Source of the DNA: Deltaproteobacteria bacterium
GTDB taxonomy: Bacteria > Myxococcota_A > Polyangia > HGW-17 > JAJRWW01
Length of the DNA: 64,000 nt
Assembly (NCBI GenBank): GCA_029938605.1
Contig: JAOZUO010000003.1
Location: 26,592 to 90,591, forward strand
Direction: 5' to 3'
A program made the position numbers and the translations under genes. Below the pieces are notes generated by a model. The model ran no database searches. It was not told the origin of the DNA and was given only the letters and a program-made list of their open reading frames with translations. Each line of letters starts with the position of its first letter. Positions within the stretch are counted from its first letter, which is position 1. This document shows positions 2,019 through 61,728 of the stretch, one piece after another.

Positions 2019-2178
2019 TAGGGTCCGCCTCAAAATAACTCGATCGCTCAGGACGCCGCTGCATCCCGGCTCGCTTCGTTTCTTCTCGTTGCATATCAAT
2101 AAGTATGCGCCTCGTCGTGCCTCGCGAGCCGGGCGCATCGACGCCCTGATTCGAGGACTTATTTTGAGACGGACCCTT
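2019..2178. repeat. ~160-bp imperfect palindromic intergenic element (family C/D), lying between the mscS 3' end and the rpoZ 5' end
   Basis: The left arm agggtccgcctcaaaataact... is nearly the reverse complement of the right arm ...agtcctcgaatcaggg...gagacggaccct. The central 74-nt core gcgcccggctcgcgaggcacgacgaggcgcatacttattgatatgcaacgagaag is identical, in inverted orientation, to the core at 34921-34995. Confidence 0.7.
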
Positions 2179-4590: not shown

Positions 4591-4656
4591 CTGCTCGGAC
4601 GAGCCTGGGTTCCCGTTGACAGGGTCGGCCACCGCGCCTACTGTCCGGCACCAACC

Positions 4657-5148
4657 ATGTACAGACTGTGCTCTCTGATGTTTCTGCTCGCTGGGCCGGG
4701 CGATGCTTCGCCGCTTCCCTCGGCGGAGCTGCCGAGCTACGGAGGGTTACTTCTAAAAACCATTCTGGCGCTGGTGATCGTCATCGGGCTGGCCTACGCG
4801 CTGCTGCGCTGGGGGCTCAAACGACTGATGCCCGGGCACGCGTCCGGTGGTGGCGAGATCAGCATTCTGGATCGGCAGCCCTTGGACAGCCGCCGCCAGG
4901 TGGTGCTGGTCAAAGCCTACGGGCGTTACCTGCTGCTGGGCGTGGGGGACGGATCGGTCACGCTCCTGACAGAGCTGGAGGCCGAAGCGGTGGCCGAGGC
5001 CGAGCGACGACGGGCGGCCCATCCCCCGAAGCGCTTCGCCGACGTGCTGCGCTCGGCCCTGGGGCGTAACAAACCTCCCCCCGAGCCCATCACCCCCAGC
5101 GACCACAGCGATGATCGCCAGGCTGACAAGGACCGGCGCGATGAATAG
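4657..5148 (+). CDS. fliO: flagellar-type export apparatus protein, FliO-like
   Basis: Single TM helix (ILALVIVIGLAYALL) followed by the FliO-like motif EISILDRQPLDSRRQVVLVKAYGRYLLLGVGDGSVTLLTEL. Sits immediately upstream of fliPQR. Confidence 0.55.
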   Translation: MYRLCSLMFLLAGPGDASPLPSAELPSYGGLLLKTILALVIVIGLAYALLRWGLKRLMPGHASGGGEISILDRQPLDSRRQVVLVKAYGRYLLLGVGDGSVTLLTELEAEAVAEAERRRAAHPPKRFADVLRSALGRNKPPPEPITPSDHSDDRQADKDRRDE

Positions 5149-5306
5149 GGTCCGACCAGGAATAGGCCGGTCAGCTCAGGTCGTCGAGGCGCCCCGGTGG
5201 CAAGGACCAAGGAGCGAGGAAATCTCCATGATTCCGAGTGACGAGGGACGCAGTCAGCGGGGATGGATCGGCGGGCTGAGCGATCTGCCTATTGCTGGTC
5301 GGACCC
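5145..5306. repeat. ~160-bp imperfect palindromic element with 16-bp terminal inverted repeats (family A/B), between fliO and fliP
   Basis: The 5' end gggtccgaccaggaat is the reverse complement of the 3' end att(g)ctggtcggaccc. It is ~88% identical to 10900-11062. It contains ggagcgagga-N7-ATG (5211-5230) in frame with fliP. Confidence 0.75.
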
Positions 5307-5311
5307 ATAGA

Positions 5312-6037
5312 GTGCTCTCCCTGGGGCTACTCCTACCTCTGCCCGCCCTGGCCCCTTCCGGAGATCGGCTGCTGGACAGCCCGCTGCTGGCCGTACTCGT
5401 CGTGGCCGCGCTGTCGCTGTTGGGCTTCGCCGTGGTGATGCTCACCAGCTTCGTGAAGGTGGCGGTGGTGCTGTCGGTGTTGCGCTCGGCCATGGGCACA
5501 CCCCAGGTGCCGCCCACCCTGGTGATCACCGGCTTGGCCTTCGTGATCGCGGCCTACGTCATGGCGCCGGTGGTTCGGCAGACCGTGCGTATTGTAGAGC
5601 CCGAGGTGGAGCAGCTCAAGGCTGGGGGCGGCTCCACCGCCGAGCAGGTGCAGCGCTACGCGGCGGCGGGAAAAAAGGCCGCTGGACCCATGCGCGGCTT
5701 CCTCAAAAAACACGCCCATTCCCGGGACCGGGCCTCCTTCCTGGCCATGGCCCGGCGCCTGCACGAGCCCCAGGACCGGACGAAGATCCACAGCGACGAC
5801 TTCCTGGTGCTGGTGCCGGCCTTTCTGACCAGCGAGCTGAAGGAGGCCTTCATCATCGGATTCTTTTTGTTCGTGCCGTTTCTGGTGATCGACCTGGTGG
5901 TGGGGAACATCCTGCTGGCCCTGGGCATGCACATGCTGTCGCCCACGACCATCTCCCTGCCCTTCAAGTTCCTGCTCTTCGTGTTGGTGGACGGGTGGCA
6001 CCTGCTGACCCGGGGCCTCATCGCAGGATACCTATAG
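5312..6037 (+). CDS. fliP: type III secretion / flagellar export gate protein FliP (SctR)
   Basis: The FliP family signature TSFVKVAVVLSVLRSAMGTPQVPPTLVITGLAFVIAAYVMAPV and four TM helices. Start taken at GTG 5312; an in-frame ATG at 5228 inside the upstream repeat is an alternative. Confidence 0.85.
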   Translation: MLSLGLLLPLPALAPSGDRLLDSPLLAVLVVAALSLLGFAVVMLTSFVKVAVVLSVLRSAMGTPQVPPTLVITGLAFVIAAYVMAPVVRQTVRIVEPEVEQLKAGGGSTAEQVQRYAAAGKKAAGPMRGFLKKHAHSRDRASFLAMARRLHEPQDRTKIHSDDFLVLVPAFLTSELKEAFIIGFFLFVPFLVIDLVVGNILLALGMHMLSPTTISLPFKFLLFVLVDGWHLLTRGLIAGYL

Positions 6038-6050
6038 CAGGAAATTTATT

Positions 6051-6329
6051 ATGGAAGACACGATTCTTCGAGTGGCCAGGGAAGGGATGCTCCTGGTGCT
6101 GGTGTGCAGCGCGCCGCCTGTCCTGGCGGCCCTGGTGGTGGGGCTGTTCATGGGCGTGCTCCAGGCGGCCACCCAGGTGCAGGAGCAGACCCTCAACCTG
6201 GTGCCCAAGATCGTCGCGGTGACCGTGGCCCTGCTCGTGGCCGGGCCCTGGATGGGCAGCCAGCTTCTACGCTTCACCGAAGCCCTGATGGTGGCCATCG
6301 CCCAGGTGGGTCGCATGGGCGGGCCGTGA
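6051..6329 (+). CDS. fliQ: export gate protein FliQ (SctS)
   Basis: 92-aa two-TM protein with the FliQ motif GLFMGVLQAATQVQEQTLNLVPKIVAV. Confidence 0.85.
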   Translation: MEDTILRVAREGMLLVLVCSAPPVLAALVVGLFMGVLQAATQVQEQTLNLVPKIVAVTVALLVAGPWMGSQLLRFTEALMVAIAQVGRMGGP

Positions 6330-7138
6330 CCGATCTCCTCTCGGCGCTGCTGGACAGCGGTGAGCTGGAGCAGTACGTGGCCATCTTCTTTCTGGTGGCC
6401 GCCCGGTGGCTACCGCTGACCATCCTGGCGCCCATCTTCGCGGCACGGTCCATGCCCGCCACGGCGCGGCTGGGTTTGGCCTTCGCCCTGACCCTGCTGG
6501 TCTTCGGGGCGGCCCACTCGGCGAGCGGCCCCGTGGCCTCGGGCTCGACGACCCTGGCGCTGCTGGTGGTGCGGGAGGTGCTCGTGGGCGCACTCCTGGG
6601 CCTGGTGGTAGCCATCCCGTTTTACGCCCTGGAGGCCGCCGGACGCCTCATAGACACCGCCCGGGGCGCCCGCATGGCCGAAGTCCTCGCGGCGCCCGCG
6701 GGGATCCGCACCTCACCCACCGGCGCCTTCCTGCTGCTCATGGGTGTGGTGCTCTTTTTGCTGGTGGACGGGCACCTGATGGTGATCAGCGCCGTGGGCC
6801 AGAGCTATCAATCCCTGCCCGTGGGGGCTGAACTACCGCCAGACGCCCCCGCCCGGGTGTTACCCCTGGCCCTGCACCTGGGCTCCGAGCTGCTGCTCGT
6901 GGCCCTGGGAATCGCCGCGCCCGTGCTGGCCACCGCGGTGCTGGTGGATCTGTCCCTGGGCCTCGCCGGACGCCTTGCCCCACGGCTACCCCTGTACTTT
7001 CTCGGCCTGCCCCTCAAGGGCCTCGGTGGCATCGCCGTGCTCCTGCTCACCCTCTCGGTATTGCTCTGGTCCCTGGGCGGACTGTACCGACTCACCCTGC
7101 ACGCCTTGGAGGCGACCCTGGCCACCCTGGGGGGATAG
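6326..7138 (+). CDS. fliR: export gate protein FliR (SctT)
   Basis: Polytopic membrane protein. The GTG at 6326 overlaps the fliQ stop (GTGA). The track ORF 6104-7138 shares the frame, but its upstream part overlaps fliQ. Confidence 0.8.
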   Translation: MTDLLSALLDSGELEQYVAIFFLVAARWLPLTILAPIFAARSMPATARLGLAFALTLLVFGAAHSASGPVASGSTTLALLVVREVLVGALLGLVVAIPFYALEAAGRLIDTARGARMAEVLAAPAGIRTSPTGAFLLLMGVVLFLLVDGHLMVISAVGQSYQSLPVGAELPPDAPARVLPLALHLGSELLLVALGIAAPVLATAVLVDLSLGLAGRLAPRLPLYFLGLPLKGLGGIAVLLLTLSVLLWSLGGLYRLTLHALEATLATLGG

Positions 7139-7213: not shown

Positions 7214-9460
7214 ATGGGAAAATGGGAAAAGCTCGCGGATGACATCGAAGACGAAGAGGCGCATACCAAGGTGCCCGAGTTCGAAGACTCAGTGGTGGAC
7301 GTGGTGGATCCAGCAGACGTCACCATGCCGCCAGAGATCCACGGCTGTCAGGTGATCGAGCGGCGCCATCCGGGCGGACAGTCGGAAGTGTTCTACTGCC
7401 GGCCTGACGGCGTGGTCTACTCCGAAGTCCAGGCCACCGAGCTCATGAATGCTTTCCGGGCCGGTGCGGCGGCTGGCGGCCCGCCAGCGGTTAGCGGCCC
7501 GGCGGCCGACATGGTCATCGACACCCTCGGCTCCGGAGAGGACGTGCCCGCGCAGCTCCGAGGCGCGAAGCTGGTGGACCGGGGGGGGAGCTTCTTTTTC
7601 ATCACGGTCGATGGCGGGGAGCTGCCCAAGGAGATAGGCGACAGCCTCTTTGAGGCCTTCGAATCCCCCGAGGTCACCAACCCGGGACTGGAGGTCAAGG
7701 CCGCCGACCTGCCTCAGGAATCCATGCCGGCGCCTCTGCCCACCGAAACGGTCATCGACACCCTGGGCGACGGTCCGGACGTACCTCCGGCGCTCCGCGG
7801 CGCGAACCTGGTGGAGCGGGACGGTAGCTTCTTTTTCATAACACCGGACCAGGAGGCCATCCCCAAGGAGATCGGCGACGATCTGTTCGACGCCTGGGAT
7901 GCGCCGGAAGAGGGGGAGGCCGTCCCCCAGGAACAACCAGCCGCGCCAACGCCGGAGGCTGAGGTACAAGCGCCTGAACCCCAGGCTCAAGAGCCGGAGC
8001 CGGAGCCGGAGCCAGAGCCGGAGCCGGAGCCGGAACCTGAACCCGCACCAGCGCCAGAGTCGGAGGCAGAGGTTCAAGAGCCAGCACCAGCACCAGCGCC
8101 AGAGGCGGAAGCGGAGCCAGAGCCAGAGCCAGAGCCGGAGCCGGAACCAGAGCCGGAGCCGGAGCCGGAACCAGAGCCGGAGCCGGAGCCGGAGCCGGAA
8201 TCAGAACCAGAACCAGAACCAGAACCAGAGGCGGAAGCGGAGCCAGAAGCGGAAGCGGAAGCGGAAGCGGAAGCAAGCAGCCCTGGACCGGAGGAGGAGA
8301 TCCTGGAGTTCCTCGGCACCGGGGAAGAGGTCCCGCCGAGGCTTCGAGGCGGCCGCATGGTCAAACGGGTAGACGGCTTCTATTACGTGACAGCGAACAA
8401 CGAAGTCCTCCCGGCCGATATCGGCGAGGACCTCATTGAGGCCTGGAACTCCGAGGCGGAAGCGGAACCTCCCCCGGCCGACGACCGGGAACCCAACCCC
8501 GTGAACAAACCCTTCGGCTACGGCGACTACGGACCGGTCACCGTCCCGAACTACGTCCTGCCCGAGACCATCGACGTACCCCAGTCAGCCGCTCCAACGG
8601 GGCCGAGCGCCGCGCCCACCGCCGACGAGCCCACCGCCGACGAGCCTACCGCCGACGAACCCACCGCCGACGAGCCCACCGCCGACGAACCCACCGCCGA
8701 CGAGCCCATCGTCGACGAACCCAAAGTCGAGGCAACCTCCGCTCCAGTCACCGAGAAGCTGGAGGCCGGGAGTCTGGAAGATCGGCTCAGACAAGCCGTG
8801 ACCACCGTCCGACGGGAGGCGACCACGGGGGCCTTCAATGTGGCCCAAGCCACCCCCACGCCCGAGCAAATGGAGTCGCTGGTGAACGAGCTCATCGACT
8901 CCGAGCCCACAGACACCATGCTCTCACGCATGGTACTTCGCTCCACCCAACTGACCGAGCAGATCTCCGAAGCCTGGGCGGACGACGAGAGCCGGGGCCG
9001 CCAGGCTCTGCACCGGGACGTAGTCAGCGGCACCTTGCTCGTAGTCGCCGTGAACCCAACCCAACTCAAGGACCTGGATGTGCTCGGCCTGCTCACCCTC
9101 CTTCGCTTTCGCACCACGAAAGGGACCGACCGGGTGGTGGCCGAATTGGCCAAGACCCTACGCTCCAAGCTGGCCGACGATCTCAACCGAGCCATCAAGG
9201 CCTCCTCCCTCACCGACCAGGTCCTGCAGGGCGCACGATCTACGGCCGGCGTCGTCGTCCATGGACAGCTATGGCCCGAGGGGGTCACCCTCCTGGTCGC
9301 CCAGACCATTACCCGCGAGATCTCTCTGACCGTAGGTGAGGTATTGAGCGGCTATCGGGAGAAGGGATACGCCTTCCCGGGCCTTGCGGAAAAGGTCCTC
9401 GAAGCCTATCGTCACTTCGCGACGGATATCGGCGAACGAGTGGCCCGTGCCATCGAGTAG
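7214..9460 (+). CDS. large acidic repeat protein of unknown function
   Basis: 748 aa. It has three tandem ~55-aa repeats ([49 protein letters not shown] and two variants), a long (PE)n/(EPEA)n tract, six PTADE repeats, and a ~230-aa C-terminal region that is not low-complexity. Confidence 0.7.
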
Positions 9461-10899: not shown

Positions 10900-11062
10900 A
10901 ATAGGGTCCGACCAGGAACAAGCAGGTCTGTTCAGGTCGTCGAGGCGCCCCGCTGGCAAGGACAGAGGAGCGAGGAAATCTCATTGATTCCGAGTAACGA
11001 GGGACGCAGTCAGCGGGGATGGATCGGCGGACTGGGCGATCTGGTTATTCCTGGTCGGGCCC
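10900..11062. repeat. second copy of the family A/B imperfect palindromic element, between the two paralogous lipoprotein genes
   Basis: ~88% identical to 5145-5306. TIRs are gggtccgaccaggaac / attcctggtcgggccc. Carries gaggaaatctcaTTG in frame with the downstream gene. Confidence 0.75.
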
Positions 11063-11940
11063 TTAGCCGATGGTCCTTCGGCCTGATCGTCTTCGCTGGG
11101 CTGGTACTAGCCGACGGTGGCTGCTCCAAGAGTCGGGCGGACGATTTCTCGAAGTTCAAGCCGTCAGAGTCCCTCCAGTCCCCGGGCGCCACTCCGCGTA
11201 CGCAGCTACGCTATCGCCCCCCCGCGGGCCAGGACGTGACCTACCAGCTCATCGTGAACCGTCAGTGCCAAGCCCTCGGCCTCCAGGCGAAGATGCGGCT
11301 GCGGGTGGCCTTGAAGGTGGACACCCTGAGCAGCGGTGGAGGCTCCTTTGTGCTGCGCTTGATCAGCCTACAGCGACTGCAACCCCTTCCCCCCGGCGGG
11401 CTGCCTGAGCTGGGACCCGCCTACGTACTGCTCCAGGGCCGAATCGGACCTCGGGGACGATTGACCGAAATTCAGGACGGCGACAGGTTGCCCACACCGG
11501 TGAACCTCGCCCTCGTGTTGCCGCTGCTGCTGCCCCGTTTGCCCGAGTCCTCCGTGGGCATCGGCGCCACCTGGCGCACGTCGGCTAAGCAGCGCTGGAA
11601 GCGCGTCCATTCCGCCGACGCGCTCACCAGCCAGCCGGGCTTCAACGGCTCCACGGAGGTGCTGCTGCACAGCGCCTACAAGCTCACCGCGCTGCAAAAC
11701 GCCAACCAACCCGTGCTCCAGGGCGACCTCAGTTTCAAGCTCCGCAGCCGCACCCGCGCCCTGAGCCACGCTACCCACCATGGAGGTCAAGGCAAAGCCA
11801 CGGCGCGCTACGTTCTGGACCCCACCACCTCTCTCCCCGTCCACGCCAAGGTCACCCTCCAAGGCACGTACAAGCTACACGCCAACGACAAAACCGCCCC
11901 CATCAAAGAGACCATCGAGCTAACCTTCAAACAGGACTGA
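10984..11940 (+). CDS. lipoprotein, paralog 2. The start is uncertain; a TTG inside the repeat element is the first in-frame start.
   Basis: Same frame as track ORF 10849-11940. Has a hydrophobic leader SFGLIVFAGLVLADGGC and TQLRYRPPAGQ resembling paralog 1. No ATG or GTG lies between the repeat and the leader. Confidence 0.45.
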   Translation: MIPSNEGRSQRGWIGGLGDLVIPGRALSRWSFGLIVFAGLVLADGGCSKSRADDFSKFKPSESLQSPGATPRTQLRYRPPAGQDVTYQLIVNRQCQALGLQAKMRLRVALKVDTLSSGGGSFVLRLISLQRLQPLPPGGLPELGPAYVLLQGRIGPRGRLTEIQDGDRLPTPVNLALVLPLLLPRLPESSVGIGATWRTSAKQRWKRVHSADALTSQPGFNGSTEVLLHSAYKLTALQNANQPVLQGDLSFKLRSRTRALSHATHHGGQGKATARYVLDPTTSLPVHAKVTLQGTYKLHANDKTAPIKETIELTFKQD

Positions 11941-22957: not shown

Positions 22958-23565
22958 CGTCTCGCAGCCTCACAGCCTCGCAGCGCACTGCATATCCGCT
23001 GAAGGCCCCACGCGGGGAGACGGATCTCTGAATAAGGTCCAAACCGGCAGAAATCGATGTACTTCGTTTTCAGCAGAGTTTCTCCCTGATAAAGAAAAAA
23101 ATCCGAACACCCAGACGTCAGGGGTCACCCACACCGCCAGCGCTACGCACCAGGCTCGCGGTCAACGGCGTGTCAGTACAGTGAGGGCGGAGGAGGATAA
23201 TCGGACGCCAAAGACGTGCTCCACTGCGGCGAGGCAGACGAACGTCGCCACCGGTGGTTCCGCCGCCGGGCAGACGGCCGGCAGGGACCACCGGAACTTC
23301 CCAACTGGGGCCCACCGGCGCTGAAGCGAACGTCGCCCAATCCGGTACTCAGGGATCCCGTGGGCTGTCCCGTCGTGGATCGGCACCCTTCGCAGCTCAC
23401 AGCGGGCGCATACCTGTCTAGGTGCCCAAACCGCATTCCCGATGGTTGAATCCTTGGGTTTTTCCCCGACTGCGCCAACCGCTGGTGAAAAAACTCATCC
23501 CAGCACCACCGATGTTCTCGCCGCCGCCGACACCTACGTCGACCAGCGCTTAGTGGCCGTTGAAT

Positions 23566-23752
23566 GTTTCACTTTTTCGCCAGATAAATCACCTCTGCCA
23601 AATCTGAAACAGAAAGGGCCCTTTGGTGTTCCACTTTCGGCCCAGATGCGTCATCTCAGCCAAATCTGAAATAGATTTGGCCCTTTGGTGTTCCACTTTC
23701 CCGTCAGATAAATCATCCCAACCGATTCTGAAACAAATCTCCGCTGACAGAG
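23566..23752. repeat. ~62-bp tandem repeat x3, each unit carrying a hairpin (ccaaatctgaaatagatttgg), inside a 1.2-kb non-coding region
   Basis: The units begin gtttcactttttcgccagataaatc..., gttccactttcggcccagatgcgtc... and gttccactttcccgtcagataaatc.... The palindrome in the central unit is perfect. Confidence 0.6.
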
Positions 23753-34879: not shown

Positions 34880-35056
34880 GGCTAAGGGCCCGCTCGAATA
34901 TTAGTTGTCCAGTTCAGGGCGTTGAGGCGCCCGGCTCGCGAGGCACGACGAGGCGCATACTTATTGATATGCAACGAGAAGTAACGAAGCGAGCCAGCGA
35001 TGCATCGGCGGCCTGAGTGATCAAGTAATATTCGATCGGGTCCTAAGGGCCCTAAT
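34880..35056. repeat. ~175-bp imperfect palindromic element (family C/D), second copy, downstream of the tRNA pair
   Basis: Shares the 74-nt core (34921-34995) with 2019-2178 in inverted orientation. Its arms end in gggccc-containing termini and are self-complementary at ~65%. Confidence 0.7.
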
Positions 35057-39817: not shown

Positions 39818-40110
39818 TCGCTCGCTTAGCCCCCGCTACGGATGTTCCCCTTGCCGCTCCAGCGGGGCGCTGCAAGAGCGGCTGCGGAGAAATCCTCCAC
39901 GGGGGCGACGCTCGCTGGGTGGTGCTTACACGGAAATTTGCGAGGCATACGATACTCGATGATACGCGCTGTGCCGCTCGCTTAGCCCCCGTTCCGGATG
40001 TTCCCCTTGCCGCTCCAGCGGGGCGCTGCAAGAGCGGCTGCGGAGAAATCCTCCACGGGGGCGACGCTCGCTGGGTGGTGCTTACACGGAAATTTGCGAG
40101 GCATACGATC
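39818..40110. repeat. tandem direct repeat, 2 x 156 bp, in the cooC-acsE intergenic region
   Basis: The unit ctcgcttagcccccg(c/t)t(a/c)cggatgttccccttgccgctccagcggggcgctgcaagagcggctgcggagaaatcctccacgggggcgacgctcgctgggtggtgcttacacggaaatttgcgaggcatacgat recurs at 39821 and 39977. Each unit holds the hairpin gccgctc...gagcggc. Confidence 0.8.
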
Positions 40111-40174
40111 AACGGAGCGGACGCGGAGCGGACTATCCGAGCTCGGTAACGAGGAAAACGGCTCTACATAAGTG

Positions 40175-40262
40175 AGCGGAGCCCGCACGGAGGATTTCAC
40201 GGCAGCCGCTCTCGCAGCGCTTCGCTGGAGCGGCAGAGTGAATCCTTCGTGTGGGCGAAGCG
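40175..40262. repeat. partial third copy of the 156-bp unit, in inverted orientation
   Basis: cggaggatttcacggcagccgctctcgcagcgcttcgctggagcggcagagtgaatcc is the reverse complement of the unit core with a few substitutions. Confidence 0.65.
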
Positions 40263-61489: not shown

Positions 61490-61728
61490 GGGGACTCCTA
61501 CAGTAACCCGAGTGGAGGTCCGCCGTCGACTGGGATTCGACTGTTTGTGTAAGGGTCCGCGAATGGACAACTCCGTCGCCCTAGCCGCCGATCCATCCCG
61601 CTGGGCGGCCATCATCGATCGAGTTGTCTATTCGCGGACCCTAAGTCTACTCTACGGGCTTGCCGCGGACGCTGGTTCATGTCATGGATACGTTCTGCGG
61701 CTGGCCACCGGCCCGAGGATATGGCAAC

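Follow-up and report, generated by a model that had tools for sequence, protein, structure and literature searches.

The boundary between the genes fliO and fliP in a 64,000-nucleotide (nt) stretch of DNA from a Deltaproteobacteria bacterium (GenBank assembly GCA_029938605.1, contig JAOZUO010000003.1, positions 26,592 to 90,591; referred to below, at its full length, as the window) raises the question of what separates the two genes, how it came to lie there, and how fliP is translated across it. [quoted passage not shown] The comparisons presented here indicate that it is very likely a recent insertion of a non-autonomous DNA transposon, that is, a MITE, tolerated within the N-terminal part of the predicted signal peptide of the fliP (sctR) product.

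Insertion of a hairpin element into fliP

The 162 nt consist of a 3-bp target-site duplication, ATA, and a 159-nt palindrome, designated copy A (Table 1); the junction in the window reads GATGA-ATA-(159 nt)-ATA-GAGTG. The termini of the palindrome, GGGTCCGACCAGGAAT and ATTGCTGGTCGGACCC, previously listed as 16-bp inverted repeats, are complementary at 15 of 16 positions. Folding in both orientations, which had been proposed as a check, shows that the + strand, as RNA, forms one long hairpin of -104 kcal/mol (z = -10.2; none of 200 dinucleotide shuffles is as good), with only -75 kcal/mol for the - strand.

Contigs of related bacteria were retrieved via an exact-sequence look-up of the neighboring fliQ product. 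Copy A is missing from L001 (GCA_030594985.1; flanks 96 to 97% identical), L002, and L021 (~87%), and the gap in the alignment is exactly 162 nt, with GATGAATAGG as the empty site in L001 and L002. The comparison with insertion-free relatives that had been recommended thus reveals exact 162-nt empty sites, both here and at the second locus described below. In these relatives, the fliO stop codon overlaps the fliP ATG (ATGAATAG), with ATGAATAGG in L001 and L002 and ATGCTTAGG in L021; the gene calls of all three start at this ancestral ATG, and FliP of the insertion-free relatives is 244 amino acids (aa) long. Within the FliP cluster at 90% identity, 9 of 10 members have 244 to 247 aa, and the longer form is found in the source genome only. 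Copy A is a recent insertion. A further contig, L003, comes from an independent sequencing run and is 100% identical over the right junction, which is therefore not an assembly artifact; this contig begins inside the element, a repeat-induced assembly break.

The element does adjoin the fliO stop codon, as had been described, but it lies inside the fliP open reading frame (ORF), after codon 2, rather than between the two genes. Read from the ancestral ATG at 5141, the product is MN-(54 residues)-RVLSLGLLLPLPALAPSGDR..., and the frame is kept, as 162 nt make up 54 codons (3 x 54). Only one of the six frames of the element is free of stop codons, and it is the same one in copy A and in the second genic copy.

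A second copy in a putative lipoprotein gene

The second copy, which had been reported as ~88% identical and placed at 10900 to 11062, has its bounds at 10904 and 11062 (copy B). It differs from copy A at 17 of 159 nt (10.7%), i.e., the two are 89% identical. As had been noted, they are not conserved as protein: of the 15 codons that differ, 10 carry non-synonymous and 5 synonymous changes. Copy B adds 54 residues before ...SRWSFGLIVFAGLVLADGGC; as with copy A, the insert precedes the hydrophobic core in a predicted signal peptide. Its site is empty in L001 and L021, which contain an uninterrupted lipoprotein-like gene start (ATGAATCGCATTAAGATTAGCCGATGG in L001), so that the window has 162 additional nt.

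The exact subfamily of copies A and B is seen in these two copies only, both in the window, as would be expected if the 162 bp had simply been duplicated locally between loci 5.7 kb apart. This alternative is refuted. The two copies have separate duplications, and for each of them relatives show an exact empty site. The first-pass annotation had reserved the name of local duplication for a unit confined to the two loci, and related copies of the same architecture are present at three more sites in the window and on 14 unrelated contigs. Furthermore, copies A and B differ by 10.7%, whereas their flanks differ from those of the insertion-free L001 by only 3 to 4%. This disparity suggests that A and B derive from different source copies that had already diverged.

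The element family

The window contains five copies of the family (A to E). A profile built from 13 copies finds ~17 matches on 14 contigs outside the window, with nhmmer E-values down to 1e-45, and no match on the insertion-free relatives L001, L002, L004, and L021. Copy C has no counterpart in L021, where the empty site reads GGGG-TAA-CCCCTTGAC. A pattern scan of species-representative genomes produces matches in metagenome-assembled genomes of Myxococcales/Polyangia only, the species of the window not being among them, and a scan of metagenome contigs yields 13 loci; a search of viral contigs with an independent two-arm pattern gives no match. A literature search on MITEs in Myxococcota returned nothing relevant.

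All full copies have the termini GGGNCCG...CGGNCCC, and within each of them 14 to 16 of 16 terminal bases are complementary. The common architecture comprises these termini, a variable outer stem, and a conserved inner stem, in which CGTCGAGGCGCCC pairs with GGGATGGATCGGCGG; the interior is purine-rich and non-palindromic, and a small apical hairpin is present in all full copies. The flanking trinucleotides are copy-specific direct repeats (TAA/TAA, TTA/TTA, TCA/TCA, TGA/TGA, ATA/ATA). As they are not each other's complement, they represent target duplications that lie outside the palindrome. In copy C and in L007, L015, L018, and L019, the duplication doubles as a stop codon.

The copies range in length from 89 to 160 nt, and the full ones have 156 to 160 nt, which is not always a multiple of 3. 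The only open frame has 53 codons, and there is no transposase gene in the element. Frame +2 is open only in copies A, B, and C and in L008 and L011; the other copies have one or two stops in it. When the translated insert (54 residues) is compared with 5.8 billion proteins, no other carrier protein is found, so the insert peptide is not a recurrent protein module. Rfam 15 has no family at the element: at the gathering score, the whole window contains two tRNAs only, and at E <= 10 there is nothing over positions 5100 to 5350.

Incomplete members are also found. Half copies occur in L009 (5129 to 5184) and L014 (763 to 832), with right halves that start exactly at the stop codon of a gene, and partial or interrupted copies in L010 (4410 to 4643) and L012 (892 to 989); in L010, unrelated sequence of ~80 nt separates the two arms. 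Such forms suggest that internal deletions or replacements are frequent in the family. Just past the right duplication of copy D, at 35044 to 35055, the sequence TAA-GGGCCC-TAA-TAAG contains a second terminus-like GGGCCC with TAA on either side, which may be left over from a further insertion or excision event.

Table 1. Copies of the hairpin element in the window and the features of the fliO-fliP boundary
Feature	Position	Strand	Description
Copy A	5148-5306	+	159-nt hairpin MITE, termini GGGTCCG...CGGACCC; in frame after codon 2 of fliP/sctR; nhmmer E = 7e-36
Left target-site duplication, ATA	5145-5147	+	Overlaps the fliO stop TAG (5146-5148); seen by comparing empty and filled sites
Right target-site duplication, ATA	5307-5309	+
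Ancestral fliP/sctR ATG	5141-5143	+	Overlaps the fliO stop (ATGAATAG); AAGGA 8 nt upstream; in frame through the element
fliP/sctR ORF from the ancestral ATG	5141-6037	+	298 aa, 54 of them from the insert; Pfam FliP 1.5e-62, domain intact
fliO	4657-5148	+	Intact; stop TAG rebuilt from the duplication and the first G of the element
Element-internal Shine-Dalgarno-like GGAGCGAGGA, 7 nt, ATG 5228-5230	5211-5230	+	In the weakly paired hairpin apex; start of the public gene call (269-aa product)
Copy B	10904-11062	+	Subfamily of copy A; follows approximately codon 6 of a putative lipoprotein gene (ATG 10885), frame kept
Copy B flanking duplication, ATA/TTA	10901-10903 / 11063-11065
Copy B equivalent of the internal start	10984-10986		TTG (ATG in copy A)
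Copy C	2021-2176	-	156 nt, second subfamily; on the stop of a gene of the MscS family and upstream of rpoZ; duplication TAA
Copy D	34886-35043	+	158 nt, subfamily of copy C; downstream of two tRNA genes; duplication TAA
Copy E	61553-61641	-	89 nt, internally deleted; divergent Ser/Thr kinase-clpX region; duplication TTA

Relationship to known mobile and palindromic elements

The small size without a transposase gene, the terminal inverted repeats, and the target-site duplications with matching empty sites are the traits of a MITE. The family has GGGNCCG termini and nearly always 3-bp duplications of the TNA type, which suggests that a DDE transposase of the IS5 or PIF-Harbinger type mobilizes it in trans. 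Duplications of this type are also found in the IS1031 and IS427 subgroups of IS5. In general, 3-bp TWA or TNA duplications typify the IS5-related PIF/Harbinger superfamily (PMC4482050). The family resembles the prokaryotic MITEs of the IS5/PIF-Harbinger (Tourist-like) kind in size (~90 to 160 bp), terminal inverted repeats, 3-bp TNA/TWA duplication, copies dispersed in the window and on other contigs, recent insertions with empty sites, and the presence of an internally deleted derivative (copy E). Unlike typical MITEs, it consists over its whole length of a single covarying hairpin, the inner stem of which is conserved, and does not look like two joined ends of an insertion sequence (IS).

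In-frame fusions through intragenic MITEs are a known phenomenon (PMC10969869). The closest parallel is provided by the Rickettsia palindromic elements (RPEs), ~150-bp palindromes that stand in frame in genes and are carried as an extra peptide (PMC10969869). In-frame insertion into genes is a trait that copies A and B share with RPEs, at 54 codons each. However, RPEs encode conserved peptides and are often intragenic, whereas the hairpin family has no family-wide frame and consists mostly of intergenic copies; it also comes from an unrelated taxon, has an unrelated sequence, and has its two genic copies in disposable N-termini of predicted signal peptides. An RPE-like coding adaptation is rejected, as no frame is conserved across the family.

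The Correia elements of Neisseria and the ERIC/IRU elements of Enterobacteriaceae are similar in being imperfect palindromes of 100 to 160 bp with duplications, co-transcribed as long hairpins. The duplication in these families is TA (2 bp). Effects on the processing or stability of mRNA are known for them, and some copies provide expression signals or ORFs within genes. Both Correia and ERIC elements serve as substrates of RNase III/E (PMC10969869). The hairpin family differs from them in its 3-bp duplication and shows no sequence similarity to them and no sign of integration host factor (IHF) sites, promoters, or RNase cleavage. Membership in the Correia or ERIC families is excluded by the duplication size and by the lack of an Rfam match at E <= 10. 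The target-site duplications, exact empty sites, and dispersed copies bear out the earlier view of a mobile element, specifically as a MITE and not as ERIC.

Elements of the REP/BIME type (moved by RAYT, or TnpA-REP, transposases) are likewise short, structured, often located just past stop codons, and built of covarying stems. REPs have 20 to 40 nt and a conserved GTAG-type head and are not known to make a target-site duplication or to carry such terminal inverted repeats. A REP/RAYT element or a single-strand element resembling integron attC is rejected in view of the direct 3-bp duplications, which argue against a single-strand HUH mechanism, and of the hairpin length of 156 to 160 nt. An intrinsic terminator is rejected too: there is no T-run after 5306 and no terminator-like site on the + strand from 4600 to 5700. 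A consensus scan for promoters and terminators finds nothing in the element.

Landing site and survival of the genic copies

In this genome of 64% G+C, TNA-type targets are concentrated at stop codons and in the opening codons of genes, which are richer in AT. Copy A struck the stop codon of fliO; as this codon overlaps the beginning of fliP/sctR, the element came to lie behind codon 2 of fliP. Several properties may have contributed to its survival. The element and its duplication together make up 162 nt (3 x 54), one of its six frames is stop-free in this orientation, and the extra residues would be placed near the N-terminus of a signal peptide predicted to be cleavable, before the hydrophobic core, so that they would be cut from mature FliP/SctR if the signal peptide is processed. 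Copy B would have followed the same course in the putative lipoprotein gene. The insertions are probably tolerated through their position ahead of the hydrophobic core. That A and B agree in orientation and frame is sufficiently explained by the survivorship of in-frame, stop-free insertions, and no designed property is needed.

Alternatively, the insertion could be deleterious or neutral damage, with the hairpin and the 54 residues impairing the expression or targeting of fliP/sctR in a decaying cluster. The very stable hairpin begins 7 nt past the start codon, only 1 of 10 cluster members has the insertion, and three new insertions within 11 kb relative to the relatives suggest a recent burst that left little time for purging. 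Yet the ORF is open, the FliP domain is complete, and the downstream Q and R genes are intact, and both genic copies occupy the sole stop-free frame and spare the mature protein, the pattern expected from purifying selection. This makes simple damage quite improbable, and a tolerated MITE insertion is the preferred interpretation.

Several observations weigh against that interpretation. Copies were counted only in the 64-kb window (five) and on other contigs (~17). In 215 kb of scanned DNA, there is no autonomous IS with matching termini and duplication 0.6 to 3 kb apart; the same scan extended down to a spacing of 0.06 kb picks up the MITEs themselves and three chance pairs of low complementarity. 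The putative transposase assignment draws solely on the size and sequence of the duplication. Only the terminal 7 to 8 bp are conserved; the ~20 bp that follow are variable, with changes that compensate each other, which would be unusual if the transposase reads a long terminal repeat. The -104 kcal/mol hairpin starts so close to the ancestral ATG (7 nt past it) that, according to the fold, it could hinder initiation at 5141. Finally, both the cleavage of the signal peptide and the tolerance of a 56-residue N-terminal region are predictions.

Translation start of fliP

The first-pass annotation pointed to a Shine-Dalgarno (SD) sequence followed by an ATG in the fliP frame at 5211 to 5230, and both are there: GGAGCGAGGA is separated by 7 nt from ATG 5228-5230. 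From this ATG, FliP would gain the predicted extension of 28 residues, MIPSDEGRSQRGWIGGLSDLPIAGRTHR, ahead of VLSLGLLL. Public NCBI-sourced gene calls start FliP at 5228 (269 aa) and the lipoprotein at TTG 10984 (318 aa). Another candidate, GTG 5312, has no SD, and its upstream region is buried in the stem (mean unpaired probability, 0.09).

Translation of fliP from the ancestral ATG at 5141 would run through the element and add 54 residues. This ATG, its AAGGA, and the overlap with the fliO stop are untouched and in frame, so a donated start is not needed. Of the candidates, 5141 is the most likely start, with about even chances of being used. Initiation at 5228, with 28 extra residues, is possible, if somewhat doubtful, and both starts may be used.

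A broader version of the latter idea is that GGAGCGAGGA and ATG 5228 form a functional start of fliP/sctR, with TTG 10984 in the same role for the lipoprotein, and that the element is a portable translation-initiation cassette. It is consistent with the SD-like motif, the 7-nt spacing, the in-frame ATG in the least-paired apex, the public calls at 5228 and 10984, and the recurrence of the AAGGAGCGAGGAG motif in another subfamily; in addition, the ancestral start may be masked by the hairpin base. On the other hand, copy B has a TTG at this position and the other subfamilies have no start there, the ancestral ATG with its own AAGGA and stop-start overlap is intact, no frame is open family-wide, no other protein carries the peptide, and most copies are intergenic at stop codons, with 4 of 17 antisense to their neighbors. 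The cassette remains a tentative reading, less than probable. Thus, of the earlier suggestion that the element donates a start, the in-frame SD and ATG stand and are reflected in the public gene call, but the feature is not family-wide and the ancestral start has not been lost. The accompanying expectation that further copies would be oriented towards genes holds in part: A and B are in frame and 13 of 17 copies run in the direction of the flanking genes, but most lie between genes, at stop codons, and 4 of 17 are opposed.

Covariation and strand asymmetry of the hairpin

In the 13-copy alignment, 93.7% of the cells form standard pairs, compared to 79% in shuffles and at most 42% with slid partners; none of 500 shuffles reaches the observed value. 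Compensatory changes on both sides are seen in 23 of the 45 pairs. A G.U pair is shared by all copies (13/13), and a U.G pair comes close to invariance (11/13). In the stem, G.U cells outnumber A.C cells 41 to 5 (~8:1), or 17 to 5 outside the two conserved columns. The + strand folds better than the - strand, by 5 to 32 kcal/mol, in all 12 full-length copies. These features, together with the co-orientation of copies with genes, hint that one strand is under constraint, be it in the form of RNA or of single-stranded DNA (ssDNA).

Such a constraint would fit a hairpin that is primarily a structured RNA or ssDNA module selected on the + strand, e.g., for RNase III/E processing, as in the Correia and ERIC elements, or for mRNA stability, that acts as a regulatory element on the fliOPQR-like transcript and spreads by transposition. 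The pairing, the compensatory changes, the conserved G.U and U.G pairs, the G.U excess over A.C, the better + strand fold, and the orientation bias all point in this direction. However, the copies are related by descent and the counts do not represent independent events; part of the right arm served as the search pattern, and its invariance thus reflects ascertainment to some extent; the orientation bias, at 11 versus 4 without A and B, is weak; and a transcription-linked C-to-T mutation bias could also raise G.U on the sense strand. Neither the lack of an Rfam match nor that of a terminator or promoter signal favors this proposal, which appears rather unlikely. [quoted passage not shown]

Implications

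The hairpin elements constitute a previously uncatalogued MITE family, with no counterpart in Rfam or in the literature searched, in uncultured Myxococcota, and the empty sites attest to its recent activity. The event is of a known kind and involves no new mechanism; it offers a clean natural example of an element persisting in genes. Such elements land on TNA targets where a stop codon overlaps a start, and the survivors are only those that keep the frame, lack stop codons, and are confined to the disposable N-terminus of a predicted signal peptide. A new mechanistic question would arise only if the strand-specific structural constraint proves functional. For annotation, the family carries a warning: automated calls shifted both gene starts into the element, and assemblies break within it.

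The export-gate operon and other repeats in the window

The product labeled FliP scores 222 bits against the NCBIfam SctR model, above the cut-off of 208.6, and 183 bits against the FliP model, below the cut-off of 217. FliO passes its own NCBIfam cut-off, and FliQ passes those of both FliQ and SctS. Myxococcota are a phylum classically regarded as non-flagellated. On the basis of the NCBIfam scores and the Myxococcota affiliation of the related contigs, the operon at 4657 to 7138 is best described as a putative type III export-gate cluster of the FliO/FliP(SctR)/FliQ/FliR type, not necessarily flagellar. Between fliP and fliQ, L001 contains ~150 extra nt (2448 to 2609, corresponding to 6039 to 6051 of the window) that are missing from the window and L002; this segment is unrelated to the hairpin family and is possibly a different mobile element.

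Three other regions of the window are repetitive. Two direct 135-nt repeats, 99% identical, are located at 39819 to 39953 and 39975 to 40109 and are followed by an inverted partial copy of 72 nt (40171 to 40242); this cluster shows no relationship to the hairpin elements and matches no Rfam family. An AT-richer stretch at 23555 to 23740 consists of three tandem 62-nt units that are ~71% alike, each with CCAAATCTGAAA-like and GGCCCTTTGGTGTTCCACTTT-like blocks. Downstream of the export-gate operon, a 748-aa ORF (7214 to 9460) with no Pfam match contains tandem-repeat runs of 12 nt (Glu/Pro-rich) and 15 nt (PTADE-like), as well as three internal repeats of 100 nt.

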